A stretch of 64,000 nt of DNA from Marsupella aquatica. Taxonomy: Eukaryota > Plantae > Marchantiophyta. Shown piece after piece: positions 7,637 to 58,746 of this stretch; the stretch's first letter is position 1, and each line of letters starts with the position of its first letter. A program made the translations under genes and the position numbers. Location: contig OZ316893.1 in the NCBI GenBank assembly GCA_973895155.1, positions 28,158,210 through 28,222,209 of the forward strand, given 5' to 3'. Under the pieces are notes generated by a model that was given only the letters and a program-made list of their open reading frames with translations, searched no databases and was not told where the DNA came from.

Positions 7637-7705
7637 CTATCGGAGACACACTTCTCGTTTAGCCCGACTCATGTAGAAGTCATGTCTTTGAGGTCAATCT
7701 TTGCA

Positions 7706-7880
7706 ATTTATCAGAGTCTCAAATAATCCTTAATCCATTAGATGAATGGAGACTCCGATAAATTTATCGGAGTCTCAACTAATCCTCAATCCTTCAAAGG
7801 AATGTCGACTCCGATAAATTTATTGAAGTCTCAAATAATCCTTAATCCGTCAAAGGAATGAAGACTCTGATAAATTTATT
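7706..7880. repeat. 56-bp tandem repeat, ~3 copies, each carrying the GATAAATTTAT core
   Basis: GTCTCAA.TAATCC at 7716, 7772 and 7828. Confidence 0.88.
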
Positions 7881-9266
7881 AACCTTGAATATAGTATATG
7901 GAATGATTCCTCACTCCTATAATTCTATTTGATGTTCTTCAAACATATTCAATTCTTCAAAGGAATGCAACTGAGGAATGCAGAATGCGATAAATTTATC
8001 GCAATCCGCTCGGGTCAGGACATTGCCACCAAATGACAAGTCAACCTTACATAGATGTTACTCGAACTGGAATGGTAGTTCCGATAAATTTATCGGGTTC
8101 TCTAGAGAAAGAGTCAAGTCTCTTGTGAGGAATGTAAGACTTGATAGGAGTCCAGTATTCGCTTTGAGTGAGGTGTTGTTCGCTCCGGCAAAAATAAACC
8201 TTTTATGGGCAGCCCACTCCTCTTTATATAGGGGATGCTCTAACCATGGTTACTTTTCCCCATTAACCATGGTTACATTTGCACTAACCCGGGTTAGTAC
8301 GTGGTCGACCCTCGATTACGTGGTTCGGACCAATTTACTCGCAGTTCGGACTTTTTCATAGACCGAATGTAAAACCCGATGCACGTATCGCTCCCTGCAT
8401 TCCCACGGCGATGCAATGTAGGCAACTCATGTTTTTTCAATTTTTTGGCAGTTTTATCGGAAATGCAGTGCCTTAGAAAAAAAATGAAATTGGGCTAAAC
8501 GAGAAGTGTGTCACACTTCTCGGTCGGTCCGAAATCATGTTGAAGGCTTAAGTTTCTTGACAATGTGTGGATGCAAGGGATTCACCTCTGTCATTGTCAC
8601 CATGGAGAACTTTCTTGAGAAATCCCTTGAGAGTTACCCTGAAGACCCGCTTGTCGCGGAAGTTAGGATAGCAAAAGTAATGAACGCTACCAAGGGTGAA
8701 CGCAGAGTACAAGAGGCTCATAGGTGAAGAATTCAGACCCATCCGGAAAATAGTTATTAAGAGGCCTGGTTCAAACAGGAGTGGAGCTTTGTCGGCAAAA
8801 AGCGTTGGAGGTACTACTTTGGACGAGCTTGCAAGTGGTTTGGGGAAGGGAAGTGGGAGGGGAAAGATCACCCTATTCATTAAAAGTGTATTTTACCCTG
8901 GGCCCTTACTAGAGGGAATGTAATGAGACATACCTGTGACCGAAGTCCCCTAGGTACCCCTTGTTATATTTTGGAGGAAGATTAAAATATATCTTGTTTG
9001 TTCTAAAGAGAATTTTCAATCCTATATAAAATTTACCTATGTTATTATAATCACACAGATTTAGGGATTTAAAATACCCTTCATTTGTTATAAAAAAAAT
9101 TGTTTGTGAAGACATTCAATACTGAGTGCACATTTTATGTAATCTGCCAGTTAATGGCAATAACACTGAACAAACATATTGCCATATAATTTTTGGCAAT
9201 GTGTGCAAGTCCACTAGGACTTTAGCACACAAATCACTAGACAGCTAATTTATACTAGATGGAATA

Positions 9267-13630: not shown

Positions 13631-16600
13631 TCAATGTCTAGTTTGAAAACGGTCTGGAAAAACCCAGTACAAATGTTTGCAAGGCATATATGGATGTTTG
13701 CGAGAATGTCGACGATAGAAATCCTCACAAGAACAAGTCGGGAAAATACAAATCTGCACAAAGTAACTATTCGGCGTCCTTAGATTCTCATGTGTTTGTA
13801 CTTTGAATTGCTTCCCCCATGAGTTCCCAATAGAAACATCCCACTGTCCCTGGACGGACATGGTCTCTTTTCTTGCAGATTCAATCCTCTTCATGTGACC
13901 ATGGGTCAAGGTTGATCGAGGAAGTGTGTTATTTCCATTCTGACTCCAAAGACGAACAGTGGGTTCCAGAAGATTGACTCTCTCTGGAAATAAGTTTACA
14001 TTGATTCGAAGCTCAAAAAGTGATGGTGGAGGTAGAAGACCGTCTCTTCCTTGAGCTATAGGTATTCCCTGGTCAACAAGATACTTCATCTCAGCTTCCG
14101 AAACATTTGTTCCTTTTAACACAGGAAGAACATCAAGAAAGGAGGGCAGGTTCACTACACCATGGCGGGGACGGCTCCGATAACATGTGTTGTTTGGGCA
14201 GAACCATATCATTTTGGCTATGGGTTCCCCCCTGAACATGCGTTGTCCTTTGACAACAATTCCTATGACACCGTTTGATGAGGGGAACCCAACTTTCTTC
14301 ACTCTATTTCAACACTCATCTCTCTTTGAACTACCGCCAAATGACGCGTTGCACTGTGGACCGGCCCCAAATCTTGATGTCCGACGCAGATGCCATGAAC
14401 CCTGCATGACTTCTGTTTCAAGAACTGGAGATTGGAGCGATGTCTGCTGAAGTACAGTGGGAGTGCTTTGTGGGTATTGTGTTGAACGTGATTGATGTCG
14501 ACCCTACGGTGTATTGAAATCATCACGTTCTGCATCCCTCGAATCATCACTTCCTGAGAGATTGACAACGGAAATGTCATCAGGTTTTTCTTCCGATACG
14601 GAAGCAAACATTGTGTGGTGCAGATTTTTACGCTTGAGTGATCTGGTATTTGGCGATGTGATAAGGACTTTATCATGCTGGTGGGAGTCTTGTGGCGAGA
14701 CAATCCCAGTTGCAGGTCCTTTCCTCTTGACAGACTTTGTTAGAACATCTCCGTTGAGAGGAACGCTTCTCTCCAAGTCAAACTCAGCTGCATTGGAGAG
14801 GAGCATGTTCATCACATCCTCGAACAGCTTTGGGGAACCTGCCTGGTCAGCTGAACGGAAAGCCAGTTCCCATATTGTAGGACCTCTTCCTCTACTCAAT
14901 CCTTTTCGATATGCGGTATTTGCTGCAACCTGAGATATAGCTCGATTATGATCCATTCCACATGCCTCGAAGAGCCCCACTTTTTTTCATTACCCATGCT
15001 TTTATTCCTGCGTGACAGACTCTGATCCGGTACAGTTAGGAATCCTAGCACCTTCTTCAGCACTTTTGTCCTGGAACGACAAAGCATAAACACTAGTAAG
15101 AGTCCGCAAAACATACTAGCGCCAGGCGCTAGGCAGAATATTTTGACAAAACCATCAATATTATTGTGTAATCACATGTTTATGAAAATAAATAGGTCAA
15201 TATTGAGAATCAATTACATTATTTGGATTCTTTGGATGGAATGTTGAGGAATGTCATCTGAAAAATGTACTTCTACAAAGGAATTTGACTTGCATATTAC
15301 TAGCGCCAGGCAAATAAAATTTCCCCACTGCCTCCAACGCATGACCCACCATGATATCCAACTCTGAAGCATTCGGAGCTTCCCAGGTAAGCAGTTACTC
15401 GACTGCCACCATAGGTCAATCTCTCTTGAAAGTCGGTAAGCCTCTACAAATGTCGGTGCGTTCCGTAATTTATCCCATAGCATTCGATGTTCCGCCTGCT
15501 TCTCTTCCAACACTCCTTCAACAGAATGGCAATGAAAATCTTGGTAAAAATGAAAAGCGTCCGTCCTCTCCCGTTCAGGGTTCGGGTGCCCTCCAAAAAA
15601 AACATTTTGGACTGCTAACCATCCGGCTTGGGCATTGTCTGCCATGAAGCCATGAATGGTTGGATTATCCAACCCATTCTCTTTGGAAACCTCAATCATT
15701 AATCTCCAAGCCTTCTCGAATGACGCTGTGTCCTCAGCTTTTAGCTCGCAAGTAAATATTGTACACAATGCGCGGTAATTGTGATCGTAAACGTGTGCGC
15801 TGAAAGTCACCCAATCCTTGGTCATTCATTTCATGACATTGAAGCTTACCCAGGCACCTTCAAGCATCCCTCCAGGTTGCATTTGCCGCAAAAGATCCAC
15901 CCCAGACCCATGGCCTTTGGAAGTCATCTTAAATATGTGAGGTCTGTCTTCTTGAGATCCTTGACCTGGAAGGATGTACCTCTGTAGAAAAGGCATGTTG
16001 ATATTCTTTTGATACCAAACAAGAAAATCCAACTCTCCAGGCCTTGCTGGTCCTGCCTAACACTCTTGAAAAGAGATGCAAACTTCTGTGGAGTAGAAAC
16101 TACCATTAGAGACTGGAAAATCCCTGTCTCTTCAATATCTTCAATCTCACCCAGGCTCTCATACAAAGACTCTACAAAAGATCCTATCGCTACATTTTTT
16201 AATCTTGGCAGGCGTCCAAGTCGGATTGCCTTCCAATTTCTTTTTTATGACATCTTCAACTACCTTTTCCGCACTCTTGCAGAGCATGCCTCTACACAAA
16301 AAGGGAGCTGCTGGCAATAATGACAAACTCCACCCTGCTCAATGAACGATCCAACACGGTGAGAGCCTCCAAGTTTCGGGGTACCAACCCATGCCTTTGC
16401 ATTCCTCCTCTTCTTTTGGTAGAAGTAGTCACAAGTTTTATTCTTGCACTCAATAAATCCAGTACAAGTGACTTTACCAAATTCCTAGTATTTCTTGGGC
16501 TGCACGTTTGCAGTGGTAGGAAATATTCTAGTCCAGATGTAGCAATCCTTGGTTTGGTCCATGTCCCGTAGACGGGATCCTTTTGAAAGAATTCCCGACA

Positions 16601-17181
16601 ATGGAGGCAACTCAAACACTACGTTTCCATTGTACTTCGGAGGCAAACAAGGTACTTGTTCACATGTGCCAGAAGTTTCCAGCCGAAATGAACCTCGAAA
16701 GTTTGCTGGACCTAGTTGACTTGAGCAGCGCGTCCATTGCACTTCTCTGGTATACAATATGGGATTGCGACGATGGCATCTCCTCTTTGACCAAGACCAC
16801 GTCAGGCGCCGAAGGCTCCACAAAGGGGATCCTTGGTGGCTCCTCATCATCACTATCCGAAAGAGTAACTACATCCACCGGATCTCTCTGAGGGGATTGC
16901 CGATCTCCTTGATTTGGTTCCCGAACAACAATGGAGTAGCACAACCCAACATTAAGGTGCCAAAATCTCACCCCATCATCGACATCAAAAAGTGCGATAG
17001 ATTCAAAGTCATTGGCTTCCGTTCCCTCCTGAATGATTGCCTCTATGTCATTCATGCGCAAATCAAACCTTCCACAAAGATAAACCTCACTTATTTGCCT
17101 GTACCTTTCGGCCACAGACACTGGAATGGAAACAATGTCACCGGTGGACATACGGGTAACTACGATTGACTGAGACATCAC
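13631..17181 (-). pseudogene. MULE-like transposase with C-terminal SWIM zinc finger (spliced, frameshifted)
   Basis: FMADNAQAGWLAVQNVF...DAFHFYQ matches the MULE core pattern. CSCEDF...PCKHLYWV is a SWIM CxC..CxH motif. Several stops and frameshifts across ORFs from 13631-14302 to 16660-17181. Confidence 0.75.
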
Positions 17182-18199
17182 AGAAGCCTCGAAAGTGAAT
17201 GAGCATAGGAAAATTATGAATCAAAATTCCACCGACGAGGACTGTTATCGATCCTGACTAACAGTTCCCTAAAGCCGTTATAATAAGACAATCCTCTGAC
17301 ACCATAAATGTATTTTGTCGTTATATCAACGTCATTTACGATCAACGTCATTAACAATAAACGCCATTTAGGAAGAACCCTTTTGTTCTAGAAATATCAG
17401 ATGATGAATAGCGCCAGGTGCTATTAAAAACATTGCAAAAGTAGAGGCCCATGCAGAGTCAATTTATGTGCAGCGCCTGGCGCTATTAATAACAATCCAA
17501 AAGGTTACACAACTACATTATCAGGACTTTTTACGTGTTACATGAAGACGTTAAGCCCGACGTCTCCTTGCTGCTAAAGAAAGGCGACATACTCGACGTG
17601 AATGACGACACGTTTTGTACGAAGTAACAAAGGTTACAGTTTACATCGTCCAAAACTACGTTACATACGTCAGTCCATACTACGTTACATATTAACGTCG
17701 TAAATAAAGACGTTATTCTGGACGCAGATTGAACAGGGAAATCAGCTGATAACATCGTTTAAAACGACGTTAATTTCAGATTACGTAGTTTGTGACTTTG
17801 TTAATGATGAGTCTGTCCAGGACGTATGAGTAGTTAGTCGTGTGAGGCTTGGTAAAAATGGTGTTAACGAGAACGTTTGAAAATAGTACCAAGAATGGAG
17901 AGACGTGAATGGAGTGCCGTTTGTGGTAAACATTAATCTTGTATGGAACATCCTTCCAGGCTACCTTAGTTGGGTGGGCTTTAGGTTTAGGTTCATATAC
18001 ACACGGAATACACATAAAATAGACATATGAAGTCCGGAATGCCACTATAAATGGGTGGCGTCAAAAGTTTGTGCCAAAAATGTACAAAATGCAGGTGGAC
18101 GTCCACCTAGTCATGCATGGTATACCCTAATGCCGCTGAGAGCGGCTCCTATCACGTCCAGACCTGCGAACAGAAATACGTGGCGGTGCCTCCGACTGT

Positions 18200-18388
18200 T
18201 TGCCTCGGGGCCGCAACTCGTACCGAAGTGGATCCTCGTCTGAACTACTGCTACCAGACACCAACTCCATAGCTCCCTTGCCTCTACTCCTAGGGACTAC
18301 ATCTCTAGTGCCACTGTGTCCCCTAGTGGTATCCCTCTCGACACGGCTCCTCTTCCTCTCTCTATGTCTCTCCCTCCCCCCCCTCTCT

Positions 18389-18420
<32 letters not shown>

Positions 18421-20332
18421 CGTCGTCTATGGCTGGTATGACCCCTATCAGTCTCCACTGGAGGGGAGAGGTTAGAAGATGACCGGCCCTGTGTACCTAA
18501 ACTGCCCTCTTGCCCACAGTCTACTAAGGCCTCCTCCTGCGTATCAGGCTCCTCCCCTCCATGATCTGCCTCCTCATCTTCCGCAATGGGTCGTGCCACT
18601 AACCCCTCTAGAGGACTCCAATCCTCCTGGATATGACATAAGGGATCAGTTTACCTCCTGCAAATAGTGGATGCAAAACCTAGTATAGAAGGAACCTAAC
18701 CTGACTATGTAACTTACCACTGGGTGGTCCTCCGGGACTGAGTCCAGCTTAGCCCATAGGGCCGCCGGGCCATAGCGTTTTGAATAGAGCCGCTCCTGCT
18801 CACTTGGCTTGGCGTTAGCTCCAAACTTGCGTTTCTGCAGGAAATTGGAGAACGTCGTCACCATCGTCGTTAACTACAATGTACCTAACGACGTTTTATA
18901 ATTAACGTCATCCAAGACAAGGTATATAGTGAAACTTCAATATTAACAATGTAGAAAAGACGTTAATTAAATGTAACGTCGCGAGAGACGACGTTAGGTA
19001 GGATGAACGTAGGGGGTCTAGACGTTAAATTTAGAACTTGCGATGTTAGAGGAGAAAAACGACGTTAATTCAATGTTCTCACCGCAGCGGCCGAAGCATG
19101 AACAAGTTGTGCTTTGAAGAGGGTGGGGGACTTACATAGGTTGCAAGGAAGCCTTGCCATCCTCCCTGGCCCCAGAAATTGGTCACACGCAGGCGGCCAT
19201 TTGATTTGCGGGCTGCAGCAGCTTTGTCCCCCATGTGCACTCGCTTGCCTACTGGGGTGTCAGGTGCTGCTTCCAACTCAGCCACGATCAACTTGAAGTC
19301 GGCGTTGCTCATTCCTTCTGGTTTCAGGTATTGCTCTGTCCTTGGGCATCTCATTTTTCGAACCTTGTTTCTCCATCTAAACCTCTGATCTGCAAGGTAG
19401 CCTACGATCTTTTGTCTGATGTGCCTATAGTCTATTTCACGGCCGTTCCTAAACCCAGCTTGCACATCGTTCAGGAGGAGCTGAAACTTCTTTGGGTTCT
19501 GCGCAAGATCCTTCCAAGTTGTCCAACCAGGACAGTGCTTGGCACAACACGTCTGCACTCGATTTGTGAGGGCCTTCTCATCCAGAACATCCAGCCTAGC
19601 ATCAAACGCATCCAAGGTGATGGTTGGGAGTTTGTCTCGACTCACAGCAGTAGTTACCGGTCGCGCAGGAGAAGGTTGTCGCTTCTTGTGGGAGTGACGT
19701 TCACGCTGAGGTGAGTACCTCTCTCTTCTGTCTGCCCTTGCATCTCCCTCTATTCTTCTTCTTTTGTATGTACCTCTACTGTGTGGATCTGCATCTCTAT
19801 ACTCCTTCCCTTTCCCCTTCCGTCTTCTCTTATCAAGGCTGCTATTGCTGTTGTGTGTTCTATCACGATGCCTCCTCCGCCTGCGAGAGTCCCGATCCTG
19901 ATCAGGCTGGAATCTATCATGTGCTACCCGGACCACACTCTTGATTGGGGTCCCACTAGGTGCCTGAGAATCAGGCTGCATTCCATTGAAGGCAGGATCG
20001 TCCCACCCATCATCTAGTAGGGACGGGAAGGAGTTCAGAGCATCGATCGAAGGCCCCCCATCCTCCCCCAAGAGCGTTGCATTCTCAGTTTCCACATAAT
20101 CATCGAGGGTAGGAGCATTGGCCTCTATATTTTCCAGGTACTCCAGAAACTGAGACTCCTTGCTTCCTTTTCCTCCCAAGAACTTCCAACTCTGGTTGAA
20201 AGCATGTATCAGCGAATGTGTCGATTGCATAGCTTTACGCACCTTTTCTAACTCCCCTGGATCATCCATAGCCACCAAGTCTGCATCAAAATCTCCACTG
20301 GAAGGGAGATAGCCTGGATGAGCCATAGTCAT
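18200..20332 (-). CDS. TnpA/Ptta-like (CACTA ORF2) gene, spliced, divergent from the transposase
   Basis: 417-aa first exon with an Arg-rich region then QKIVGYLADQRFRWRNK...KPEGMSNADFKLIV...AARKSN...NFWGQGGW, resembling the TnpA/Transposase_24 pattern. GTAAG donors at ~19135 and ~18716. 3' end approximate. Confidence 0.55.
18345..18420. repeat. (CT)n-rich microsatellite
   Basis: CTCTCTCT runs. Confidence 0.85.
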
Positions 20333-20746
20333 TCACTGTTAAGATAGGAGGTCGAGAGGGGGAGAGGGGAAGTGTTGATGTTGAATGTGAGTCACATTCA
20401 AGTCACTTCCCGATGTTTTGTTAAAGGAAAACAGCCGTAGCCCACGAACCTTGGAGACCCGCCGTTACCCTAATTTAACGTCATTAATCACAACGTTAAC
20501 TAGGAGTGTAGGGTTTAGCGGCGACGTTACATATAATTACGTCATACCTAACGACGTTAACTTATTAAGTACGTCGTACATTATTACGTAAACTAAATTC
20601 GGCAACCTCCCCACAACCTAAAAAACGACGTTAATTTTAGGGGAACGTCGTGTGGATGGACGTTAGTTTGGTTAACATAGCGGGATACGTTTATGCTTGG
20701 GGTTTAATATGTTGTGGGGGCCTTTGTAAATTTGATCACAGGGGAC

Positions 20747-23700
20747 ATGGCAACCTATGCATCGGACCATGATGGGGGCAGGCATCATCGGCACAGAAAC
20801 CATCATCATCATAGGGGGACGTATGATGAGTCGGATAGGCGAAGGGATGACTCGTGTGACGATGACGATGAGCATGGCGGTAGTTCTCACCGACATAGAC
20901 ACCATCATCGGCATAGGGGGAGTTCAGCTTCATCGGGCTATAGGAGCAATGACAAGCGGCAGAGGAGGAGGGATGACGAGGGAGGGAGGAGGAGGGATGA
21001 CTCATCCTATGAGGACCATGGTGGGGGTACTTACACCTGATGCAGAGATGACCATCATCATAGGGGGAGGGACAACCTGTCGGACCGGGAGAGAGATTAC
21101 TCACCAGACATGTATGATCGATCTAGGCGTCACCGATCCAGGCGTCGTCAACGCAGACATGGTTCCGAGGGTAGGAGAGGCTGGAGCCCCCATCATGCTG
21201 ATGGATTTGGAGAGGCCATGGCTGCTCTTCAGGGGATTGGGCCAATTCGCAAGATGCCTTGCCCTTGCAGACGATGCAAGGGTGTTGTCTTACACGAGAG
21301 GACCACTGTCCTTAGCCATTTAGGGATCCATGGTCGTTACACCCCCCCGACCCGAGAGGTAATACAATTTTGTTGGGTATTGCAATTATGATAACATCTC
21401 CTTCCTTGAATTGTTTTTTGATTGTCATATTCTGAACTTGTTTTGGTGAACATGTGGAACAGATTCCTGTTGTAGTGCGATCTTCGCCTGTGGACCGCTT
21501 GAGAGACATTGCATATCGTGCACTCGCACCACTCGTCCATCCATCCGATTTTCCAGCCACATTGAGGGAGATAGACCGTGTATTTCGGAGGAGGAGGAGA
21601 GTGTTTAGGATGCACCCTATTGAGAGGGGAGTAGTGGTGACCACTAGACCCCGATCGATTGAGTCTCGTCCACCTAGGATTGTTCCGCCCCGATGCCCTT
21701 TTCTTGATGCATCGGTGTCCCGGGCACCGAGACAGTTGCGAGGGAGAGCCTTGGACATCTTAAAGGACTCCTTCCCAGCCCAGTTTGGACTCCCTATGGA
21801 CCTCCCGCTTCGGGAGCCTATTATAGTTTGGGACCGCCCATGGGTCATCCTCCCCTCCACATTGGGGACTCATGTAGGACTTGGAGTATTTGCTCTTGTG
21901 GATATCGTGGTCCCTACCAGTTGTGCACCCGATGATTTGCCTCAGTTGTTTCCATTCTATGGGCCCAAGTATTCGGCGGCAAGATGGCGCATCTTGTCCC
22001 GACAGTGCCCAACCTTTAGTCGATATGGCATGTCACTAAAGTTGGACCCTAGGTATGCTCAGATTGATGGTTACCCACCTCGCACGGGGAACTTGGCGGG
22101 TTACATCAATAGCACTATTGGTTCTCGGCGTTCAGGGTTTAGGCCAAATGCTGAGTGGCACGAGTTCCATGACCAGAGTCACCCTCGTTTGCCTGTAGCA
22201 TGCACGCATTACATCTTGACACATGCTACCCGCACCATTAGAGCAGGGGAAGAGATTCTCGTAGATTATGATTGGCATTGATGTTTACATGTCTACATGA
22301 CATATTCATTATGGGGTGACCCTTGCATTTTTCATTATTGATGTTTCACTGTAAGCTTTATCACGGAAACCCTTTCTCTAATTGTTATTTGTCATTGCAT
22401 ATTGAAAACTCTAGGATGGTGTACATATTACTCCCACACCTCACCCATCAATGATGACTACATCAGCCCGTGCCTTTCACGTACGTGCCACCTTACATTT
22501 CTCAGACGAGGAGGATGCTGAGGGTCAGCCCCTTGACCATGATGAGATGGACGATGAGGATGAGGAGTACCATGATGCATATGATGGAGAGTTGGATGAT
22601 GATGGAGAGTTGGATGATGATGTTGACGATGAGGGAGATGAGGGAGATGAGGGAGATGACCCTATCCTTGAAGAAGATGCCTTTGCCCACCTTGTTGACG
22701 TTCACTTTGGACCTCATGCACCTGACGCCGAGCACCCTATCATGGAAGTGGATCAAGAAGATTGGGATCACTTGGAGACTGAAGCCAGAACACCACTATT
22801 TGAGGGATCTCCATCCTCACGGTAAGGTTGTCCTAAAATTATCACAACTCTGGAATTTCATCCAGTGAATATTGGGCAGTCTAAATTGTAGTGCCAGGCA
22901 TGCCATCTAGCTACTTGGACTAACTGCAAAAAGTCTGGTGTTTGTGGTTTTGCAAATCCAGGTTGGGTGCAACTTTGTTGATGTTGAATTTGCAAGGAGT
23001 TTTCAATGGTTCGGATGTCCATACAGATGCACTCTTCCAATTGTTCCATGGCAAACTCTTGCCCCAACCAAACACTCTCCCTGGATGTGTGAGGGAGGCT
23101 AAGAAGTTGTTAGCCTCAATTGGATTGGCTTTAGAGACTATCCACATGTGCCCAGGTGGGTGCATCTTGTATAGAGGGGTGTACAAGGATCACACTCACT
23201 GCCCAGAGGAGCACTGTAGGCTTCCACGGTATCGACCAGACACCATTGGAGACAAGATTGCAAAAAAGGTAATGTTTTCCTCAACGCAATGTGAGAACAA
23301 GAAAGTCCAACTTTTAACGTTGCATTCTTTCAAACAACGTCGTACATGACTATGTAATTGATTACTTTACGTCGTCCATCTCACTTTATGTCTTTCCACC
23401 TGACGTTTTTTTGTTTTTATGTCGTATGGGATGCAGTAACTAACGTCGCATGGTACATTAGGGTATGAAACGTCGTCCTTTACGATGTTAGTTTTAATAA
23501 TACGTAGTGTGGAAGGACGTTTATTGTGATTGTCGTCAAATTGACGATGTTACATTGGATCTGGCAGGTTTTTCGTTATTTCCCAATCACTCCCCGACTT
23601 CAGCATCTCTACCGACAAAAGCACTTATCCACACTACAGACTTGGCATGTGGAGAACAAATCCCCACCAGGGATAATGCAATACCACCAAGATAGTCCAG

Positions 23701-26408
23701 CGTGGAAGCACATTGATGCCACTTGGCCAAATTTTGCCTAGGAGCCAAGAAATGTTCGTTTGGGGTTGGCAATCGATGGAGTGAACCCATATAAACAACG
23801 ACGGAAGCCTAAGTCCATCTGGCCTGTTCTTTTGATAAATCAAAACATCCCTCCATGGTTGGCAATGAAGAAGGGTCATGTGCTTCTATTAGCTATAATT
23901 CCTGGACCCAAGGCCTGTAAGAATCCTGATATCTGTTTGGCTCCAGCTTATGAAGAGCTACATAATCTATGGGAGGTTGGAGCAGTGACAACAGATGTCA
24001 CTCGTGAACCAGGCAATGGTAGGACCTTCAATATGAGGGTGATGATCACTCATTGCACCACAGATGGTCCAGGTAATTCATTGGGCAACCCAATGACTAT
24101 TGTTTGCACAATGTCATGTACAATGCAAGTGTTGGGGTTATTTGTGGTCTGAACATGGTTCAATGAAATGGCAGGTATGGGAACAATATCTGGCCTGAAG
24201 GTGGCAAGTTTTTCAGCTTGCCCTTCATGTGGCCCAGAGTTGCGTGGGAGGTACTCAAGACTACTGCACAAAACCACATATGAGGGCAGTAGGGTCCGGT
24301 TGGCAATGGATGACCACTTGCGACAAAACACAACACATTGGGCAGAGACTGAAGTGCGGCCATGTCCTAATGGCCCTTCAGCTGAAGGACAAATTCAAAT
24401 GGCAGAGAAGGTGGAAGCAAAGTTACTAAAACCCAAGGATTGTGGAGTAAACCGACGCTCAGCTATGTGGGACTTGCCTTATTGGAGGGTAAGTGATAGA
24501 AGTGCATGGTTCCTTTACAGCAAATTAGACCAATAAAATTCTTAATTTAGAGATTGCAACTGATTCAATATGTTATTTCAATTTCTAGAGACTCCAGGTT
24601 CGATGGTTGTTGGACCCCATGCACATTGAAGTGAATGTTGCTAAGAACTTGGTGAAGCACATTTATGGGACGAATGACACTCGTGGAGTCCGAGAGGATG
24701 CTGAGAGGGTTGGAGTAGTGAAGAGTTGTTGGATAACACGTACTGGGGAGAAACCTCCTGGTCCTTGGATTTTGCCAAGAGAGGTTTTGAAGGACATGAA
24801 TGGGATGATAAGCGAGATGAAGTTCCCTAGCCATTACGGAGCTGGTTTTCGTGGGTGCACTACAAGGAATGATCACATACCCCCAATAGGGTTGAAGTCT
24901 CATGATTATCACAAGTTGATACAGCATGTGCTACCAGCAGTCTTGCGTTGTTGTGATGATTCCCGGGAGCGTCGTTTACTCCGTCTGACTATATATGAGA
25001 TGTGCTCCATTTTTAGGTATGCTAACGTACCCTCTCTTCCATTGCTCTCTTGCAAGTTCTTGTTACCGCTGAAGGAGCCATGTAATTCAACAAGTATTTC
25101 AAACTCATTTTTCTATGGCCCTATGTGGATCTGATATACAAAATCTTTGATGGTTTTGAGGAGGAACATAGGTGGGTATGCGCTAAGGAGATAAAGGAGT
25201 CTGAGATTCCTTTGATGAGAGAGAGGTCAGCTCGCGTGATGTGCAATATGGAGAAGGTGTTTCCCCCATGCATATTTGACATGCAATTGCATTTACTATG
25301 TCACTTGGTGGATGAGGTCGCGATTGCTGGTCCTGTCCATGCACGTTGGATGTATTGGGTAGAGCGCTTCATGAAAGTGCTCAAGTCCATGGTGCGTCAA
25401 CCAGCTCGACCAGAGGGAAGTATGGCAACGGGGTATATCATGTCGGAGTGCCTCTTTTATTCCGGAGGGATGATAGGAAGTTTGGACACAGAAGCTCCCA
25501 CAGCTTGGGAAGAGGCACAAGATGATGACAATGGTGGGTTGCGTTTGATGGGTGCATCAAAAAAGCGTTCACTACATGACAACATACTTCGCCTACAGAT
25601 CCACAATTATGTGTTGGGAAATCGCCCAGAGATGTCTCAGTGGAGGGAGTTGCATAGGTACATATATGCAACTCTATATAACTGTTAATCTAACAGTAGA
25701 CGTTGTTCTACATTCTATGTGTGTAGAAGTTAGAGTGGGTTCAAGGAGCACTTCTTTGGATTGTGCAATATTCTCATGGATTCATACATTTTTTGCAGTG
25801 CATTCTTGGAGCAGCAACCAATAGTTGCACAACGGTATGCATTATTTCGCGTATGGGCATTGGAGCGCATGGATAGGCTCCTTGCAGAGCATGGACCCTT
25901 ATCCATTCCCATTGATGTACAGAACATCATTAGGGGACCAGGGTTGTGGGCAACGACCCATACACACATGTATGAGTCAGGGCACCACTTTCGCACTTGG
26001 AGGACAGATCACATGAAGAAGAGTACATGTAACTCAGGAGTGTTCATGTTGACAGACCCAGGTGATGTTGAGATTCCCTATTGTGGCACTATATTGGATA
26101 TTTTAGACGTTCACTTTGGGTCATTTACTACTATTGTGTTAGAGGTGCGGTGGCACAAATCCATCATGTCACCTCCACATAGAGCCACCATGGTGAAAGA
26201 TGAGTGTGGGTTCTATCGGGTAGACACGACTCGTGTAGCACCATCCGGGACTGAGGTTAGTGACACTATAGTATTTCCTAGCCAGGTGGATCAGTGTATT
26301 ATGGTTCTGATGCACACTATGAGAGGATGGTCCATCGTCATTCCCATCTTCCCACGATGGAGGAAGGGTTTGATGGCATCAGTAATTGTAGATGATATGG
26401 ATCCATGA
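20747..26408 (+). pseudogene. CACTA transposase (TnpD-like: transposase-associated Zn domain, Transposase_21, DUF4218-like regions), 8 predicted exons
   Basis: Exons ~20747-21358, 22415-22821, 22962-23268, 23568-24072, 24175-24488, 24589-25016, 25172-25657 and 25799-26408 with GT-AG junctions. Motifs CPCRRC..HL, IHMCPGGCILY, EPRNVRLGLAIDGVNP, LDPMHIEVNV, GLKSHDYH, GPVHARWMYWVER. Premature TGA at 21038 and TAG at 23739. Confidence 0.9.
21463..22281 (+). CDS. SET-domain (lysine methyltransferase-like) exon inside transposase intron 1
   Basis: GLGVFA (motif I), FYG, IDG...GNLAGYINS, PNAE, ATRTIRAGEEILVDY (motif IV). Frame is intact. Acceptor AG at 21461-21462 is phase 0. Confidence 0.8.
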   Translation: MPVVVRSSPVDRLRDIAYRALAPLVHPSDFPATLREIDRVFRRRRRVFRMHPIERGVVVTTRPRSIESRPPRIVPPRCPFLDASVSRAPRQLRGRALDILKDSFPAQFGLPMDLPLREPIIVWDRPWVILPSTLGTHVGLGVFALVDIVVPTSCAPDDLPQLFPFYGPKYSAARWRILSRQCPTFSRYGMSLKLDPRYAQIDGYPPRTGNLAGYINSTIGSRRSGFRPNAEWHEFHDQSHPRLPVACTHYILTHATRTIRAGEEILVDYDWH

Positions 26409-26923
26409 CCATAAATGTATTCAGTGCATGTATATATTCGTTATGGCCACCTTCATGTGGGTTTGTAGCATCTGTGGGTAACGTCGTTGTATGACTATTA
26501 CGTCCGGTAGACCAATGTATCTTCAAACTACGTCGTATCAGGCAGACGTTAATTCCAATTAACGTCGTTTTATTGAGCCTTCAACGATGTTAATTTAGCC
26601 ACGACCCCGTTTACGTTACTCCACACGACGTTGATTCTCCACTTAAAATGATGTTAAACTAACTTACGTTGTTTTAGGGTACGTATTAAACCAAAGACGT
26701 CGTGTATTGCAACGTTACTATATCCGCGCGACGTTAATGACAGTGGTGACATTAATTGGCACATGCATTCAAAATGAAAAACATGAGGGAGTCTTTATTC
26801 AGTTTCAGTATGATATAGAGATACAAAGGTCCTACAAAGCACATTGCATGTCCACCACAAAGCGACTATAACCTAGCCGAATCACTAAACTGCCTCATCC
26901 ATTGACATCCAGATTGTTGCTAC

Positions 26924-27484
26924 TTAAGGAGTTCCTTCACCAGACCAGTAGTACTCCTCATCTGCCTTCCTTCTTTTGTAAGAATCACGCCTCTGCCTCT
27001 GGTTCCATTTCTTGCGGACGACCTCTTCCCCAGCCTTTAGCCTTTCAGCCTCAACCTCAGCTGCACAACTTTCCTTGTAATCATACAAGACAATGTGAAG
27101 CTCAGTCGGAGACAGCTCACATTTGGGCAATGTAGGTGGATATGCCTCCCCATCATCTGGGTTGGGCGCCTCATCCAACATCTGATCATCACCTGGATGC
27201 AGCAGGAAGTCTCCTGGATCCAACTGTTTGTTGGCCAGAATTGAGCACTCTACCCAACGGATAGAAATGAAATGAACTGTCTCTGCAAAGTGCTCGATCA
27301 ATCCATGGTAGTCACTGAAGTGCTCAACAACTTCTTTCCACGTATAGGCCAGCAAGTAGTCTGTTTCCGAGGTACACAACTTCTCAATAACACCTCCCCG
27401 ACAAAAGAACCCACGTATAGTCTTGTCCTCTTCACCAAGTGGAAGGAAGCAACAATGCACATCTTTGAAGAACTTGCGCACCAT
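26924..27484 (-). CDS. BRCT-domain-like protein, 186 aa, convergent with the transposase
   Basis: FFKDVHCCF...RGGVI...TDYLLA...HFISIRWVECSI...LDPGDFLL follows the BRCT pattern (GG, WxxxS). Intact ORF with a charged C-terminus. Confidence 0.7.
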   Translation of the reverse strand: MVRKFFKDVHCCFLPLGEEDKTIRGFFCRGGVIEKLCTSETDYLLAYTWKEVVEHFSDYHGLIEHFAETVHFISIRWVECSILANKQLDPGDFLLHPGDDQMLDEAPNPDDGEAYPPTLPKCELSPTELHIVLYDYKESCAAEVEAERLKAGEEVVRKKWNQRQRRDSYKRRKADEEYYWSGEGTP

Positions 27485-30400
27485 GACTGAACACTGAGTC
27501 TAGATCCCACGCTGCAATTTCTCTGTACTCAGGAAGAGTGCATTCTCCAAAAATCACAAATGCAAGCCTACTTTGGTCTCAGCACTCTTAAACCAAAATC
27601 CTCCCGTAGAAAACCCAAGCTATACTCGAGTCAGCATGGACTACTCCTCATTCAAGTCGTCCACACCGATGTACTCAACGTCTAACATGGCTTGATTCAA
27701 TCGGAACGTCCTACAGAGCAACGTTACCACTTTTACGTCTCCCTCCACGACGTAAACATTGACGTCGTTATACCCTAAACACATTACATCCTCTAATACG
27801 TCGTTAATATTGAACGACGACCAAAACGACGTTTAGGACAGCTCATCCAGAGACGTTAATTTTAAACGTGTTTCCAGCGACGTTAAAATGGGGGCAATCG
27901 GCGCTTAGATTTCTCCGACATCGCCGTTACGTCGGACGTAGTTATAAACGTAGTCATGGAAGTCGTTAATTATATTAACGACGATTATGAGGAGGTATTG
28001 TTTGCATCCGATGCAACAAAATCTAGTTGTGTTAGGGTCCATCTAACGTCAATTTATGTGTAGCACCAGGCGCTAATAAAAGCAAATGACATAAAACGAA
28101 TTCCTAAAGGAGACATTGGATGATTAGCGCCAGGCGCTAATATTGATATCATTTCATATTACGAACGTATACAATGGTAAAAACTAGAAGTAGGAGCCTT
28201 CAAAAGGCTGAAAAAGCTTTGTTTTTTGCTAGCGCTGGGCGCTAGTTTTCTTTTGTATCAGAAATATGAGAAAACCGGATTTTTGGGAAAGTAATGGCGT
28301 ATTAACGCCTCTTATGGCTCTATATTGAATTCCCAACTGACATAAAAATTGAAGATTTTAGGCCTTGGAAATTACTAGCGCCGGACGCTACTATTTGGTG
28401 AGTAAATTAAAATGAATTTGATATATTCTCAGGTTTTCCTTTCAACGGTCATATTCAACGGTAACTATAGGTTGCGTGACCCTCAATACATCAATCCCCT
28501 TTGGTGTTGTCGAATAAGATAACAACATGTGTCACAGATCCAGGCCAGTGGTTCAATTTCCTTAGCATATATGTCATGCTTTTTGCTCTAGATTCTTTTT
28601 ATTTCCCATGTTAAGTACAGTACGATCAAAGTTGTTTGACGGGTTTTTGCCGTTCGTGGTACGGAAAGAGCGCGGTGGTCGTCAGTGCTTTCTTCGCCCT
28701 TGTGCGAGCAATGGACCCTATCTTATCCTCCTCTCAATGCTTTAGTGGAAACAGACACAGAGAGGTCGTTCCCTCGCAAACATCTGAGTGCTCATTTTCA
28801 GGATCTTTGTATAGTCGTCGAGTGACTTGATCCACTGCTTTGCGAGCTCCTAAAGCACAACCCGCTGTATCATTCCCGAATAGCAAGAGAGGGAAGATGG
28901 ATGATTCTGATTTGTTTGCTGTGGAGGACTTCGGAGAGACGTCGCTGACTGTTTACGATGTGATCTCCAAACACATTATGTCATTTGGAAAAGATTTTCG
29001 AGGACATGACAAGGATCCGCCAAGGATTCCAATGTGCCGATTACTTCATATGGAAGTAGTGCGAACATTACAGAAGGGAAGTCCTTCGATAGTGAAGCTG
29101 AAAGACTCCTTTTAGAGCATAGGATACAATTCTAAGATCAACATGCTTTTTTATGTCCAACCAACAGATTCCAATGGAGAAGTCCAGATCTGCATGCCAG
29201 AGATTCGTGCTTCCTAGGATGCAATTTGGGTCGCAGAGAACAAAAAGTTTGAGGCGAAATGTGCTGCCAACCCTGACTTCTCTGTCTAGCAGGATAAGAT
29301 GTTTTATGTGTTTGATGGAAACCATCGACTCTACGCATGGTCCATCATCACGAAGGAGAATCCAGATGATGTGAAATACCATCCTCGCGTCCAGTGCACA
29401 ATATTCAAGGGAGAAAGGGGTCCTTGATCGAGATTGAGGCGGCGATGCACACTATTAACCAATAAGTGTCTCTTCCAATATATTTCTATTCTAATCTATG
29501 ATCACTGTGTTTCACTAGCGTCGGGCGCTACTGACTCCCTCTCTTGTTTTCAGGCTTGGGCAAGCAGTGGTCAAACCCTCTTGGATACTTGACGCAGACC
29601 GTATCAACCAAATTCTCTCGAATGAACTCGATTACTACAAGTCTATCATTGATGCTGCAAACTTCAAGAAGTTTGGGCAGATCATGCAGAAAACACGGAA
29701 GGGATTGTGGAATACAAAAAAATGCCTCAAGAAGCGCTTCTGTACATCTTGTGTGAGAATAAGATCAAGTCTTATTCTTGACAGTTTAAGATGGATTTGG
29801 AACATGATGCCGCTCAGGGTACACCTTGGTCTCCCGGAGAGATTTCAAAAAGACATGCAATGATGATGAAGGAGGCAACAAAGGATTGGGCGATAAAGGT
29901 GTCAAAAATCACTCCTCTATTAAGCCCCGCTTTTGAGGATTTAATGCGGACATGTGCTGAGATGTACCCCCTCACAGAGAAGAATAAGAGAGAGAAGAAG
30001 CCGGATGCAGTTGTCTATACAATGGATCGAGCAAGATTGTTTACTGCTGTCTCTGCCCTTGACCCCAAGCTGAGGAGTACCCTTCTGGTTGCCCATTATA
30101 CACCGGAGCTGAGGAAACAATTCTTCCATCCACAGAGCGTTAATGACGATCCAGTGAAGCAATGGTGCCATACTTGGCAAACTTGGAACACTGTGGAGGG
30201 AATTGCTATTGGTTTGCTGCAAACCTCCCTACGCCAGGTCAGTGATATAGTCCCCGCCAATCGGTTGCAGGAGTGGGAGTGTGAGTCGATTGAATCACTT
30301 ATTGAAATAGTCTCAAATAACTTCAAGAAATTCAGGGACGCTGTGAAAGGCAAGTTTTTTAATACAATGTGGCCTTCCAAGTATCCCGACAAGGCTGACT

Positions 30401-33400
30401 ACACCCTCAAGAATCAGAAGAGGGCCAAACAATACCTGTACCGTTTCTTCATGCACATGGAGATTGTGAAGCCAGATTACTTTTGGGCATACCCTGCTGC
30501 TTTCCAAAAGTGGATCGTTGTTCCTGAAGGAGACATACTGGCCAACGTGTATTCAATGTATCCCGTTGAAGGGTGTCTTCCACCAAGAAAACTGTCAGAA
30601 TGGGAGAGAATTCATTGTCCTTGGTATTTGGACACCGATAGATGGGACTCTCCATTCGGAGACACTGAGAAAGACGCATTTCATAAGCTTTCAAAGTCTC
30701 AGGTCCCTCCCAAGTTTGTGTCCGACATGAAGCAGGGAATTGAAGGTGATGTGAGCAAGTCGGCGGCAGAATTACAAACGGTGTGCGAAACTACGGTTGT
30801 TCATGTTGACCGAAGTCGCAAACCTAGAGCCAAAGCAAAAACCGAAGCTGTGGCACCGAGTACATCAATGCGGTCCGCCAAAAAACGTAAGTTGTCATTC
30901 AGCTTGTAGCTTCACATTTTGGTTAGGGCCAGGCGCTGCTATATGACTATGTCTATTGGTTTGTTTTTTCAATTGGTTTGGACAGCGCCTGGCGCTATTA
31001 TTCAGCATTGAATAAATTTTGCTCTTTTTCCTTTAGGTGGGAGAAAGTCTGACGTTGCAACCGACGAAACAAAAGTAGATGCGACTCCGGAGCCTTCTGA
31101 AGCCAATACCGGTGCCCGTCAGACCCAGTAACTCCAATTGACAAAGCGAAAGAGATTGTCCCTCTTGATGCAACCAGTACAAAGAAGAAGAAGAAAAGGG
31201 CAATTCAAGCTAGAGAATCTTCCCGAGATGATGCCACTGGAACTGGTGTTCAGAGAGATGTGGGAACCTTCAAGAGCAAATCTTCTAGGCATTGCATGGT
31301 GGAAACAAGTATCCAAGAATTTATTGATACTGCTTTCAACAAAGCAGCGAAACCAGATTGGGTGACTGATGCAGAGAAATGGGGAAAGGACTTAATCAAG
31401 TCGGGTTCCCGAGAAAGGGAGTAATCAAAGGAGGAAAAGAAAGATTGTGACGCCACCGGTACGGCGGTTAATGAGTGATTCGGTCTAACTGTGCTTAGCA
31501 CACGCGTTAGGAGTGTCTTAGGCCGCTATTATTAGCATAACGATAGTATTTAGGTAATCATTATGGGTAGGACATCATTAGGCAATAAGGGGGAATTCAG
31601 GTTCGGATTGGCGGCGGGTCGCTATTCGCACACCCAGGTTACGAGCGTGGAGGGGCCCCTCCCTCAGGTCCGTATAACAAACTTAAGGAAGCGGCCACTG
31701 ACACGTGCTGACTCAGACCGGCGAAGTGGCCGGTACACCACAAGCGTGAGCGGTTCAGCCTATGGGCGTCGAGAAGACGTCGGGGGATCGACAAGCCCTC
31801 AAGGTATAAAAGGGCAGCCAACCCTTTGTAGTGCACCAGTCCATCAGTCCACGCGCCAACCCCAGCTCTCTCGTTTGCTCTAAGTTGCCACTACTATCTC
31901 CTCTGAATGTCGCACACGATCCTCTCCAGCTCGGCCATTCGATTCTGGACGCAATTCCTATCTACCGGAAGGCACTTGGCCGACTCATTGAAACACGCCA
32001 ACCCGCGCCGATACAAAATCGAACGCAAGTACGAGAGAGCCATCCGCCTAGCAGGACGACACCACTACATCCTTAACTTTGACTACCCGTCTCAGAGCGA
32101 GCTTTACCGACCAGCAGAGGTATCTGGGTACTTCTTCAACGCAGACAAATATATCGGTTTGTGGGAAGCATTGCTTCGGTTTCCGGACGAGGTCTTCAAT
32201 ATCCCGGGTACGATTGACTTGCAACGACATCACTTTGACCACATCCCTGCTCAGGTTCGGGCTATCATCAACAGCAAGTCTAGCACTACCCGTTCGACAA
32301 GGTCGTCTGCACTTGCTTTGGAGAACTTCTACCAGCATCTACAGAGCTTCATGGGAACTCGGCCATCAACCAACATGACCAACTCAGTCGAACCCGTACC
32401 TGTACCCATACCCGTACCCATACCCATGCAACCTCAGGCTCAACCTCAGGCTCAGCTTCAGCTTCAGCCTCAGCCGCAGCCTAGCCAAACCCCACCACCG
32501 ATCGCCCAGCCAGCACAAGTACACTCCGTCATCAACGCTGTGGATCTTAGCGATGACGACGAGGCTACCCCACCCTTGACCAGGCGGCCCAGAGGAACAA
32601 GCGCTTAGGGGGCCGACACTATATCGTCCCCACCCCCTGCTCTGACCCCAGGAGCGGCCCCGACAGACAACATGGTGACCGTGGCCGACCCGGGCCCGTT
32701 ACTAACGGCAGTGGCATTACCCAGGCCCGATCGGGAGGATGGGGAGGTGTCACCTTCCCCGAGCCAGTCACGGGGAAAGAAGAGGAAGGAATCCACCACT
32801 GCATCCGGGTTACCTTTGGTCATGGTAGCCGTAGCCAAGGTGACGATGCACCACATGGGGGAAAACGTTCACAAAAACATCCTCCATCCCAAGCATGTGG
32901 TGTACCTGAAGACTCAGGGATTCAAGCACCTCGCCTCCCTCCCCTGGAACACTTGCAGGTACTATGGGGAGGACATGACGGAGTTCATCAGGAATTATGA
33001 CGACGCGCGTCAACATACTCGGTTGCGGGGAAGGAGTATGTCCCTCATGGAAGAACGGCTCAGGATGATCTTTGGGTTACCCAAAGGTGACCATCGAGTC
33101 GAATCACGGGCTCCCGGGGGCAAGGGAGCCAAGTACCAATCTTCAAGTTTTCCCTCAGAGGGAGCAGTGGACAACGGGTTCGTGATGAGGACCTGTCTCA
33201 TCCCCGAGATAGCTGAGCGACTGGAGTTCCAGAGGTACGCCCTCCACATGATGGAACCCCGGGGAGAGATCTCCGCCGCCCAGGTTATCCAGGTCGAGAA
33301 CTATCGACCTAGGAGGTGGGCGTCGTACTTCGCTAAGAAATTCCATGAAGAGATGGAGCGGCGAAGGAAGACGCTGTACATTGGCGGGAAGGCGTATTTC

Positions 33401-33716: not shown

Positions 33717-36700
33717 TGTGGTGCGTCCCATGGCTCCCTAAATCCAAGAAACCCCCCAGCTCAAGCCGATTCCTGCAGGTTTCGTGCTTGGCGAGGCCGT
33801 TTCCGCGGCTTAGCGGCATGGGACGCTGCTAACTTTCTACTACTACTATTAACATTTTACACACATATACTGGACAGATCCTTCATCGGGTCATGAGATA
33901 CGTAGCCGGCCTAATATAGGCCTTCCCCTGTCTTCCCCTGTCTTCCCCTCCGTCTTGTTAGGTATGTTTGGATTCCGCCGCCGGAATGATCCCCAATAGG
34001 CTTGGTTAAGCCGCTAAGACCTCTCTCAGCTCGACACATCCAACTCTCACTCCCCTGCTTACTTTCCTTCCTTCTGTTGATGTGGGCACTCTTCACACAA
34101 GTTAATGCGACACACAAATAGCAAAATGACTCATTCTGACTGAGTCATACCATGCACTTGCCATACAAACAGTACATCTCATACACAAGTTCTGCGAACT
34201 AAGCCGTGAGGCCAACTCTATTCAGCTCTTAGGCATGAGGAAACATGAATATACACAAGGGTCACTGTATGACTAACCGAGAGCTTCTCGTACTACTTGA
34301 TCCCAGCCCGGCTGGTGCAAACTAAAAACTTGCTAAAGAAGAGGCCCTGAGCTCCCCGCTGCCCAGGTACTTATCCTGGTAGTGGATCCGCCATTCTTTG
34401 CATCGTAAGCCTAATCTACTTAACAGTAATCTACTTGCCCGAATCTACCTATGTACAGCAAGGCAGGAGCACAAGTGTTGCTCCTACCAGTGGGACCGCA
34501 ATCCCACTAAGCTAAGTGTCAGGGCCGCTCCTGGTTCTGATCCTAATCCTAAACGTGGAGATCCGCGCCCGCCCTGCCCACTCACGCCTCCTCCCTCCAC
34601 GTCCGCCCTCCCTAAAAGGAACGGCGCCCTTGCACCGTCACGACACCGGTGGTGGATCCTCAATGGACGCCCCCAACACTTCCTCCTCAGCCACTGCCGT
34701 TGGCCCGCCTACTGACAGATTACCTGCCCTTGACCGAGTCAACTCTCCATCGGCCTGACTGGGTCCACCTTCGGCTTCAGCCTCGACACCGGCCTCGGCA
34801 ATACCCACGGCTTCGGCCTCAGCCACTCCCACGGCTTCGGCTTCAGCCACTCCCACGGCTTCGGCTTCAGCCACTCCCACGGCTTCGGCTTCAGCCACCC
34901 CCACGGCTTCGGCCTCCCCTTCCCCTAGGGTAGTTGGATCCTTAGCCGTGACCCTGTCTGGGGTCGGTGCTGGGTCTACCTCCTTGATCACCACGGCCTG
35001 TGAAGTCGTATTACTCCTTGACCCTGGAGGTTTCCGCTTCTTCTTCGTTGGTGGCTCGGCAGCTGGTCCCTTCCCCTTCCCACTTACTTCCGGCACTGGT
35101 GCAGTTGACGCGGCTTGTCCTTCGGCAATTACCACCCCTGGTAACTGGTTTGTCCCAACGGGAGATGGACCTGCTACAGCTAAGCATTTAAATACTGCGG
35201 CTTGTTTCTTCAGCCGCTCTGTTTGGTTGTCGGCCCGCCGCTGTAGGTTCTCCATCTTCCTCGTGATTTCCTCCAACTCCTCTTGGGTTTCATCCAGGTC
35301 CTTACGTGCCCCCTCCAGCTCGTTTTTGGCCTCCTCCTGCTCCCTGTGGGCTTCCTCCAATTCCTTCTTCAAGGTAGCCCTCTCCTCCTGGGTTGCTCTT
35401 AGCTCCTTGTCGAGCTCTGCAATGATGACAGACTCCATCTGGTTCATCTTGGCGTAAGTCTGTTCGAGCATTTCGTCCTTCTCCCTTAGGTCGGCCTTGA
35501 AGCTGGCCGTCAGGGACGCAAGCTCCTGCTGCAGCGCCATAATCCCTTGATAGGATTTCCCTAACTCGACCTCCTTCTGCTCAAGGGCTCCGCGGATTTT
35601 CTCGAGCTCCCCTTTCAACGCCCATTCCTTTCTTTGGGTCTCCGCCATGGCCCGGCTGTTGGCTGTTATGTGGGCCTCCTTTGTATTCTTCAGCTCTTGC
35701 TTCCACTTCTCCCTCTCTTTGATCGTGTCGGCCAACTCTTCCTGCGTCTGAGTCAGTTTATCCTTGATATTCTGATTATCAGCCTGCGCGGCGTCCAACT
35801 GCCCCTGCATGATGTTCAGCTCATGTCGTTTAATCCGCAGTTCATCTTGGGCTTTCTTGGCCGCCCTTAGATCTTCAATCTCGGCTCCCATCCTCCTAAG
35901 CCATCGAATGACCTCGTCCTTCTTGCTTCTCTCTAAAGCCACCGCTTCTTCTAATTGGTGCTTCTCCAACTGCTCCCTATGGAAAAAGGGTCCTACCTCC
36001 AACTCCTCTCCAAAGATGCCGAGCGCAAGTTCCCCACACATCTCACCATACTCCATGGCTCTATTCTTAGCGTAGGTGGAGTAAGTAGAAGTGATCGGCA
36101 TCGCCCATCGTGGCCTCTGCTCCCAAGCCGTCCTGCGGATCTCTTCAATCGTGGCTAGAGGTTTGCTTCCTTTTTCGGCTAGCCGCCTGATGTCCTCCGG
36201 CCAATCTCCTCCTGGTAAATCCTTTTCCTTAGCCAGGGCGGCCTCTTCCTCCTGCTTGATTCGCTCCTGAAATTCCTGCACCGTCTGTTTTATGCCGTCG
36301 AAGCTCGGGGGAGCAACATCTGGTGGGGGAGACTCAGGGCTACTCTGCTGGTTGGGGTCCCCTCGCACTACCCTTGGAAGTGTGGGGACAAACCGGCCAC
36401 AGGTCCTTACTCCTGGAACGTGATGGTCCGACCCATAGCCGGAATTATCATGGCTGCAGTCCTCCACTGCCTCCTCTACCTCTTGGATGTCCGGCTTCTC
36501 CCTCTCCTCTTCATCGGTAGGAGCTTCAGGCAATTCTGCCTCAGATTCGGAGCTTGAGGTTCCCACGTACATTCGAACACCTGGCTTGGATTCCGGCCTG
36601 ATTCTCTCCTTGTCTCCAGCAAAGGGGTTTTCTCTTGTGAGCCGGTGTAGGCCTACTTCTGTAGTAGTGTCCTGCATTGTTGCCGTTGCCGTTGTTGTTG

Positions 36701-57200: not shown

Positions 57201-57272
57201 GATTCGGATATCTCCCAACTCCCGTCAATGATTTTGAGCACTACTTGGATTATTAAGCCAGAATATTATTAA
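54210..57272 (+). pseudogene. Env-position accessory ORF (~1020 codons): PMD-like N-terminus, acidic/Pro-rich linker, C-terminal retropepsin-like domain
   Basis: ORFs starting 54210, 54660 and 56796 share one frame, split only by TGA at 54594 and 56781. GLKKLLQLPW...NGW..C and FVIDPGSRINFLS...MILSTTWI. Confidence 0.7.
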
Positions 57273-58740: not shown

Positions 58741-58746
58741 TCTTTT

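Follow-up and report, generated by a model that had tools for sequence, protein, structure and literature searches.

Introduction

Plant CACTA/EnSpm transposons, among them maize En/Spm and Arabidopsis ENSPM, have short terminal inverted repeats (TIRs) that start with CAC, 3-bp target-site duplications (TSDs), a TnpD-type DDE transposase and subterminal motif clusters. All of these are found in the element described here, a 10,524-bp transposon at positions 17508-28031 of a 64,000-nucleotide stretch of the liverwort Marsupella aquatica (contig OZ316893.1, positions 28,158,210 to 28,222,209, forward strand; hereafter the window, at its full length). On balance we favor the reading that this is a CACTA transposon whose transposase gene holds a nested SET exon, likely as an alternative last exon, with a product predicted to serve in anti-silencing.

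Two kinds of plant anti-silencing factor, TnpA and VANC, both from flowering plants, bind DNA motifs. Arabidopsis TnpA is described as acting through dense, family-specific motif clusters (bioRxiv 10.64898/2026.08.24.746577), and VANC21 as binding motifs that lie within introns, between genes and at the termini (PMC5735166). In Phytophthora, HarbingerS and MuDR elements are cited as having SET genes (PMC12730594). A 2026 preprint modelled 962 Repbase Spm proteins and reports various accessory domains (bioRxiv 10.64898/2026.08.24.746577); a SET-bearing EnSpm could be among them. Our literature search, which did not cover Repbase, found no paper describing SET in EnSpm/CACTA, a liverwort CACTA element or a head-to-head TnpA. 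The superfamily is a known one, and what is noteworthy here is the conserved nested SET exon together with VANC-like motif clusters, the CACAA end being minor.

A probable SET exon nested in a CACTA transposase gene

The predicted transposase gene runs from an ATG at 20747 to 26408 and codes for 1,222 aa in eight exons, as against the one to six exons given for 64 angiosperm transposases (PMC4158355). All seven predicted transposase introns, and the SET intron as well, are GT-AG. The protein matches Pfam Transposase_21 (E 4.7e-30) and DUF4218 (E 2.1e-30), which confirms the EnSpm-type transposase claimed in an earlier note on this DNA; the Transpos_assoc piece in exon 1 falls below the Pfam cut-off. 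The motifs follow the DDE transposase order D, D, C(2)C (CPSC at 626), H(3)H (HLLCH) and E, and by the family motifs we take D512, D608 and E922 to be the probable catalytic residues. Given ends of the 5'-CAC..GTG-3' short-TIR type, a 3-bp TSD and a Transposase_21 plus DUF4218 DDE transposase, the transposon almost certainly belongs to CACTA/EnSpm (CMCT clade). Six of 140 candidates matched the transposase, none of them a named angiosperm; the best is from Calypogeia fissa, with 60% identity over 340 aa.

Just two stops interrupt the joined transposase frame, one at residue 98 (position 21038) and the other at residue 500 (position 23739). Contigs of four sequencing runs (two studies) were aligned to window 16800-28800, and at both stop positions their depth is entirely or almost entirely C in each of the four runs. 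Because the sister contigs lack both stops, it is this copy that has decayed and not the family.

The SET block lies in predicted transposase intron 1 (21359-22414) and scores 24.9 bits with Pfam SET, against a curated cut-off of 22.4. It had been listed earlier as a cargo open reading frame (ORF); the SET domain holds up, but we prefer to see the block as an alternative exon nested within the transposase gene. Exon 1 ends in phase 0, and the acceptors at 21463 and 22415 are both phase 0. Joining exon 1 to 21463 is predicted to give a 476-aa knuckle-SET protein, and joining it to 22415 the 1,222-aa transposase. From this geometry we consider it probable that SET is an alternative last exon, with one gene giving either transposase or zinc-knuckle-SET. 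Alternative splicing that yields transposase or an accessory protein is described for plant CACTA elements (PMC13547354) and is a prediction here; the difference is that the alternative product at this locus is SET, placed in intron 1.

A separately transcribed passenger gene, nested in the intron and having its own start there, would account for several homologs in which a Met is called close to where the block begins, and the wider family does include genes from Ginkgo and Calypogeia whose N-termini are unrelated; moreover, the exon 1-SET joint is a prediction from sequence. However, the gap between exon 1 and the SET block is just 104 nt, and the first Met of the block is residue 50, although the residues upstream of it are conserved and align with homologs, so that translation likely starts in exon 1. 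The phase-0 geometry recurs in L001, a genomic relative with 48% identity, which has a knuckle exon, a phase-0 GT donor, an AG acceptor, SET and a stop, and after these an acidic exon that is entered through a phase-0 acceptor and resembles the window's (pairwise E 1e-5, 34 aligned residues). Knuckle and SET also stand in one protein in P0053, P0057, P0065, P0082 and P0092. We therefore regard the nested passenger gene as improbable. Still less credible is a single long SET-transposase fusion in which splicing would leave the SET frame ahead of its stop. Three Riccia models (P0092, P0115 and P0128) do link SET sequence to Transposase_21, but their junctions differ in place and two of the models lack part of SET, while the SET frames of the window and L001 continue to a stop at the conserved end of the domain.

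The SET family and its probable activity

Seventeen close homologs of SET were found among 1,704 candidates, and a profile search gave 130 matches. The 30 proteins that were looked up comprise nine from Riccia sorocarpa, five from Calypogeia fissa (one being the transposase match), one from Ginkgo, one weak bacterial match and 14 without an organism. Transposase body sequence is also present in four of the 130 profile matches, all four being Riccia gene models; nine of the 130 have the knuckle, and four of these nine had seeded the profile. Elsewhere, SET-related loci made up one of 60 pattern matches in metagenome contigs, none of 18 in viral contigs and none of 13 in prokaryote genomes. In the tree of all 55 rows of the SET family alignment (A2), the window's SET falls in a supported seven-row clade (99/94) with a Calypogeia protein. 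With SET-bearing elements common to Calypogeia and Riccia, and the nearest transposase 60% identical, a distinct lineage is plausible as judged from the sequences. Three distant family members with unrelated N-termini, P0133 (Ginkgo), P0079 and P0106 (both Calypogeia), may have been domesticated, or may represent the cellular gene from which the SET exon came.

The residues expected of a SET domain, GxG, a YxG-type motif, Asn and the terminal Tyr, are present. Conservation in A2 is 49/53 for G139, 52/54 for G141, 53/55 for G167, 48/55 for N216 and 48/51 for Y269. Among solved structures, the highest-ranking matches (E 2e-5) are two SET chains from Legionella, both without the NH-motif His; these effector chains are reported to be enzymatically active. 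As a separate observation, the best Protein Data Bank (PDB) matches of A2 are such bacterial SET effector chains and not plant chromatin SETs, and an E of 2e-5 is by itself no sign of transfer.

The knuckle-SET protein might be real but no counter to silencing: a SET that is dead, or acts on something other than histones, and that regulates or scaffolds the transposase or steers target choice. Ser replaces the NH-motif His in 52 of the 55 A2 rows, the protein stops right after the last Tyr, and its N-terminus is common with the transposase, as would suit a competitor or partner. On the other side, the cofactor-site glycines, the Asn and the last Tyr are strongly conserved, and the His is likewise absent from the bacterial SET effectors that are the top two structural matches. 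We hold a dead or non-histone SET to be rather unlikely and lean, on the pattern of conserved residues, towards a SET that is catalytically active.

Ends of the element and sister copies

The earlier note proposed 12-bp TIRs flanked by a TTA duplication. These are present; the left and right TIRs, CACAA at both ends, match at 11 of 12 positions and form the sole 11/12 pair within the window, where three further pairs match at 10/12. A pair of this quality with a TSD also turned up in 39 of 100 Markov-simulated 64-kb sequences, so the TIR/TSD pattern by itself proves nothing and was rejected as proof of the ends.

The sequencing-run contigs bear on the ends directly. An empty site is seen as a contig joint 17504->28032, which omits 10,527 nt, i.e., the element plus one TTA, and keeps a single TTA. 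This joint was found in three of the four runs (three contigs in X1, one in X2 and one in X4); run X3 has nearby joints from more diverged host copies. In X1, X3 and X5, contigs pass without a break from host sequence on the left to host sequence on the right. At the left end, contigs enter the element at 17503-17509 from foreign flanks (at least nine in X1, at least eight in X3 and at least one in X5; none for X6 among the matches listed), and these foreign flanks agree poorly among themselves (0.51-0.57). Further, the element's own motif takes over from the host motif at both ends. The empty-site joints, the foreign flanks and the motif switch at both borders together establish that the ends are real. 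Sister copies ending elsewhere, or host copies all containing the 10.5-kb segment, had been named earlier as grounds for doubt; instead, sister contigs start at the same left-end base and host copies without the element exist. The earlier description of the element as complete is borne out for both ends but not for the coding sequence, owing to the stops at 21038 and 23739.

A chance pairing of the two CACAA termini, or a composite built from several elements, would fit the simulation result and the fact that no single contig from the four runs spans the whole element. The exact empty-site joints and the foreign flanks at 17503-17509 contradict this, one motif family runs throughout the element, and all 30 bins of 16800-28800 are covered in all four runs, which makes it exceedingly unlikely. 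Eight long X1 pieces inside the element, among the pieces listed, show 20 differences from the window in 3,551 bases, from which the family is young; no variant was seen at base 17511 among the matches listed (40 of 97 rows). The transposon is a real, multi-copy, mobile and young CACTA family with the anatomy described.

The earlier note treated CACAA, in place of the typical angiosperm CACTA or CACTG, as a mark of distinctness. Plant reviews do give CACTA/CACTG as typical termini (PMC10741241; bioRxiv 10.1101/2024.01.21.576519), and animal members of the superfamily are described as beginning with CCC (PMC1636069). Since the superfamily is defined by CAC..GTG and a 3-bp TSD, however, with which EnSpm membership is counted as consistent (PMC12730594), CACAA is not the distinguishing trait but a minor family variant inside that rule. 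We found no relevant paper on CACAA termini. End-finding rules that require CACT(A/G) would overlook the borders of these elements, and only such rules would; the transposase is easily found by homology (E 4.7e-30). The EDTA paper, in the part consulted, contains no CACTA end rule (PMC6913007).

Motif clusters and accessory genes

Family-specific motifs of the ACGACGTTAA type, on which the earlier note is silent, cluster at both ends of the element, in both intergenic gaps and in two motif-rich long introns. Within the element, the 3,844 non-coding bases contain 74 copies of ACGT and the 6,680 coding bases 11, which is 19.3 per kb in non-coding against 1.6 in coding DNA; the 53,476 bases outside the element contain 94. 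ACGACGT has 22 copies and ACGTTAA 17 in 3,843 non-coding bases, compared with means of 0.8 and 1.3 and maxima of 5 and 6 in 300 simulations. Six clusters, delimited by eye, hold 21 of the 22 ACGACGT and all 17 ACGTTAA; in intron 1, and in each of the five transposase introns that are short, ACGT occurs at most once. In the relative L001, the upstream non-coding DNA (1-300) has repeated ACGT- and ACGAC-containing words, 5 and 5 in 300 nt, an uncontrolled count.

The element accordingly has family-specific motif clusters in non-coding DNA of the kind associated with TnpA and VANC. The TnpA motifs of Spm1/Spm3 are likewise family-specific, CG-containing, 8-10 bp long and densely clustered, but as described the bound clusters are terminal, and TnpA-like proteins are reported from flowering plants alone (bioRxiv 10.64898/2026.08.24.746577), whereas clusters here extend to introns and the gaps between genes, and no match to a TnpA fold was obtained for the left protein. 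VANDAL elements with VANC are also multi-gene and have short motifs concentrated in intron, intergenic and terminal non-coding DNA (PMC5735166). They differ in being Mutator-like; no VANC homology was seen in our element, and its motifs are dispersed in clusters.

To the left of the transposase gene and divergent from it lies a gene that the earlier note called TnpA-like. Its ORF corresponds to exon 1 of a predicted three-exon gene, and the head-to-head arrangement stands, with an open model of 545 aa; its identity as TnpA was not confirmed. The marks of TnpA are a Transposase_24 match or a tandem tri-helical HTH domain. The protein has a basic low-complexity part and then a helical region. 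No homolog was found in viral contigs or among 7,988 scored candidates similar to it in length; there was no Pfam or PDB match and none to Transposase_24, Atlas scores were 0.82 or less, and a search with its single-sequence fold (pLDDT 40, low confidence) gave no match. With no homolog, profile or fold match, the TnpA-like label rests on position and helical character, and we treat the protein as a candidate motif-binding protein. The split genes described in Arabidopsis are head-to-tail (PMC13547354), in contrast to the divergent accessory gene here; no ORF for a TnpA/ORF2 was found downstream of 26408 on the transposase strand, its place in typical angiosperm CACTA elements.

The right ORF was earlier read as BRCT, which the searches do not confirm: neither Pfam nor PDB gave a match, and although BRCT is named in five of the ten Atlas rows listed (scores 0.82-0.87), all Atlas leads (0.82-0.88) lie below the tool's 0.9 line. 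Its single-sequence fold (pLDDT 46, from a query that began two residues after the ATG) had no match.

Proposed function

We suggest that a bidirectional promoter would drive the left gene and the rightward gene, and that the rightward transcript would be spliced from exon 1 to 21463, giving knuckle-SET, or to 22415, giving transposase. The transposase would cut and paste at the TIRs and leave 3-bp duplications. The divergent left-gene protein would bind the ACGACGTTAA-type clusters in the manner of TnpA and VANC, and knuckle-SET would methylate lysine on a histone or protein partner, so that cognate copies stay active. An anti-silencing role for SET, argued by analogy, is tentative. HarbingerS and the oomycete MuDR elements are likewise DNA transposons encoding SET, proposed as a counter to silencing; they belong to other superfamilies and are from oomycetes (as cited in PMC12730594). 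The fullest version, a two-part kit in which the divergent protein would read the motif clusters while a spliced, active knuckle-SET would mark the chromatin of the element's own copies, all within an old, liverwort-wide branch, is in our view doubtful.

Several findings weigh against these proposals. The exon 1-SET splice is known only as predicted joints, L001 is the sole genomic relative that could be read and ends early in the transposase, and the Riccia models that fuse SET to transposase come from automatic annotation. Neither knuckle nor transposase is present in most of the 130 profile matches, of which 106 are shorter than 300 aa (24 reach that length); a distant member is a Ginkgo gene. 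The change of the canonical NH-motif His to Ser means that SET may be inactive or non-histone. The flank sequence that X1 and X3 have in common indicates that the runs are close kin and not independent lineages. For the left protein no relative was detected and the model is of low confidence, and TnpA-like proteins are reported, in two papers, solely from flowering plants (bioRxiv 10.64898/2026.08.24.746577; PMC13547354). Finally, a second transposase fragment in the window (42708-43760) has the knuckle joined straight to the acidic region, without SET; SET is therefore dispensable for CACTA spread in this genome, and SET-less lineages coexist with the SET-bearing one. This CACTA fragment is 39% identical and ends where a long direct repeat begins.

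If the proposal is true, a SET exon in a CACTA transposase gene, kept in leafy and complex-thalloid liverworts, would point to enzymatic counter-silencing in non-seed plants, and the two-part kit, if real, would mean that a plant transposon encodes a histone writer of its own. We draw the warning that many annotated liverwort "SET-domain genes" would be transposon exons.

Table 1. Features of the transposon in window coordinates
Feature	Position	Strand	Basis
Left TSD, TTA	17505..17507	.	empty site retains single TTA
Left TIR, CACAACTACATT, begins CACAA	17508..17519	+	TIR comparison, sister-copy contig starts
Left subterminal motif cluster (ACGACGT / ACGTTAA)	17520..17910	.	motif count
Left accessory gene (predicted), 545 aa, no internal stop	18297..20332	-	splice model
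Left gene predicted exons	20326 (or 20332)-19136, 18834-18718, 18626-18297	-	
Predicted left-gene intron with motif cluster (9 ACGT)	18835..19135	-	motif count
Gap between divergent genes with motif cluster; putative bidirectional promoter	20333..20746	.	motif count
Shared exon 1: His/Arg-rich stretch and CxCxxC-H zinc knuckle (Transpos_assoc-like)	20747..21358	+	Pfam, splice model
Exon 1: phase-0 GT donor; stop at 21038 in this copy	20747..21358	+	
SET exon (predicted), 272 aa, terminates in stop, phase-0 AG acceptor	21463..22281	+	Pfam, homologs, splice model
Transposase (TnpD-type) body	22415..26408	+	Pfam, splice model
Transposase body predicted exons	22415-22821, 22962-23268, 23568-24072, 24175-24488, 24589-25016, 25172-25657, 25799-26408	+	
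Transposase body: D512, D608, C626xxC, E922; stop at 23739 in this copy			
Predicted transposase intron with motif cluster (8 ACGT)	23269..23567	+	motif count
Motif cluster between convergent transposase gene and right ORF	26440..26760	.	motif count
Right ORF, 186 aa from ATG, C-terminal long helix	26924..27484	-	BRCT-like by eye, weak Atlas lead
Right subterminal motif cluster	27670..28019	.	motif count
Right TIR, AATCTAGTTGTG	28020..28031	-	TIR comparison
Right TSD, TTA	28032..28034	.	flank reading, empty site

Host element and other content of the window

The transposon is inserted between the divergent genes of a host element (window 13300-17500 and 28035-31000), which on the minus strand has a SWIM-like motif and fragments of a MULE-like transposase, and on the plus strand a 375-aa ORF. 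The MULE-like assignment of the earlier note is retained on the SWIM-like Cys/His motif and the transposase fragment, both of which we take to be such by eye, with no Pfam match. The host element's non-coding DNA has its own palindromic motif, of the AGCGCC-x-GGCGCT type. Separate CG-containing motif clusters lie at 4700-8100 (CGATAAATTTATCG type) and at 53950-59650 (GACGCTG..AGCGTC type, near gag-like ORFs), and transposons in this genome may generally have motif clusters specific to their family.

Two pairs of long, LTR-like direct repeats, 33717-34670 / 43755-44691 and 5-750 / 39426-40167, have pieces that are 85-98% identical. A 1,243-aa ORF at 34638-38369 (minus strand) has no Pfam match. 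LTR retrotransposon ORFs occupy 50267-53822 and 59956-63012, with reverse transcriptase (RT), RNase H and integrase pieces and a gag with zinc knuckles.

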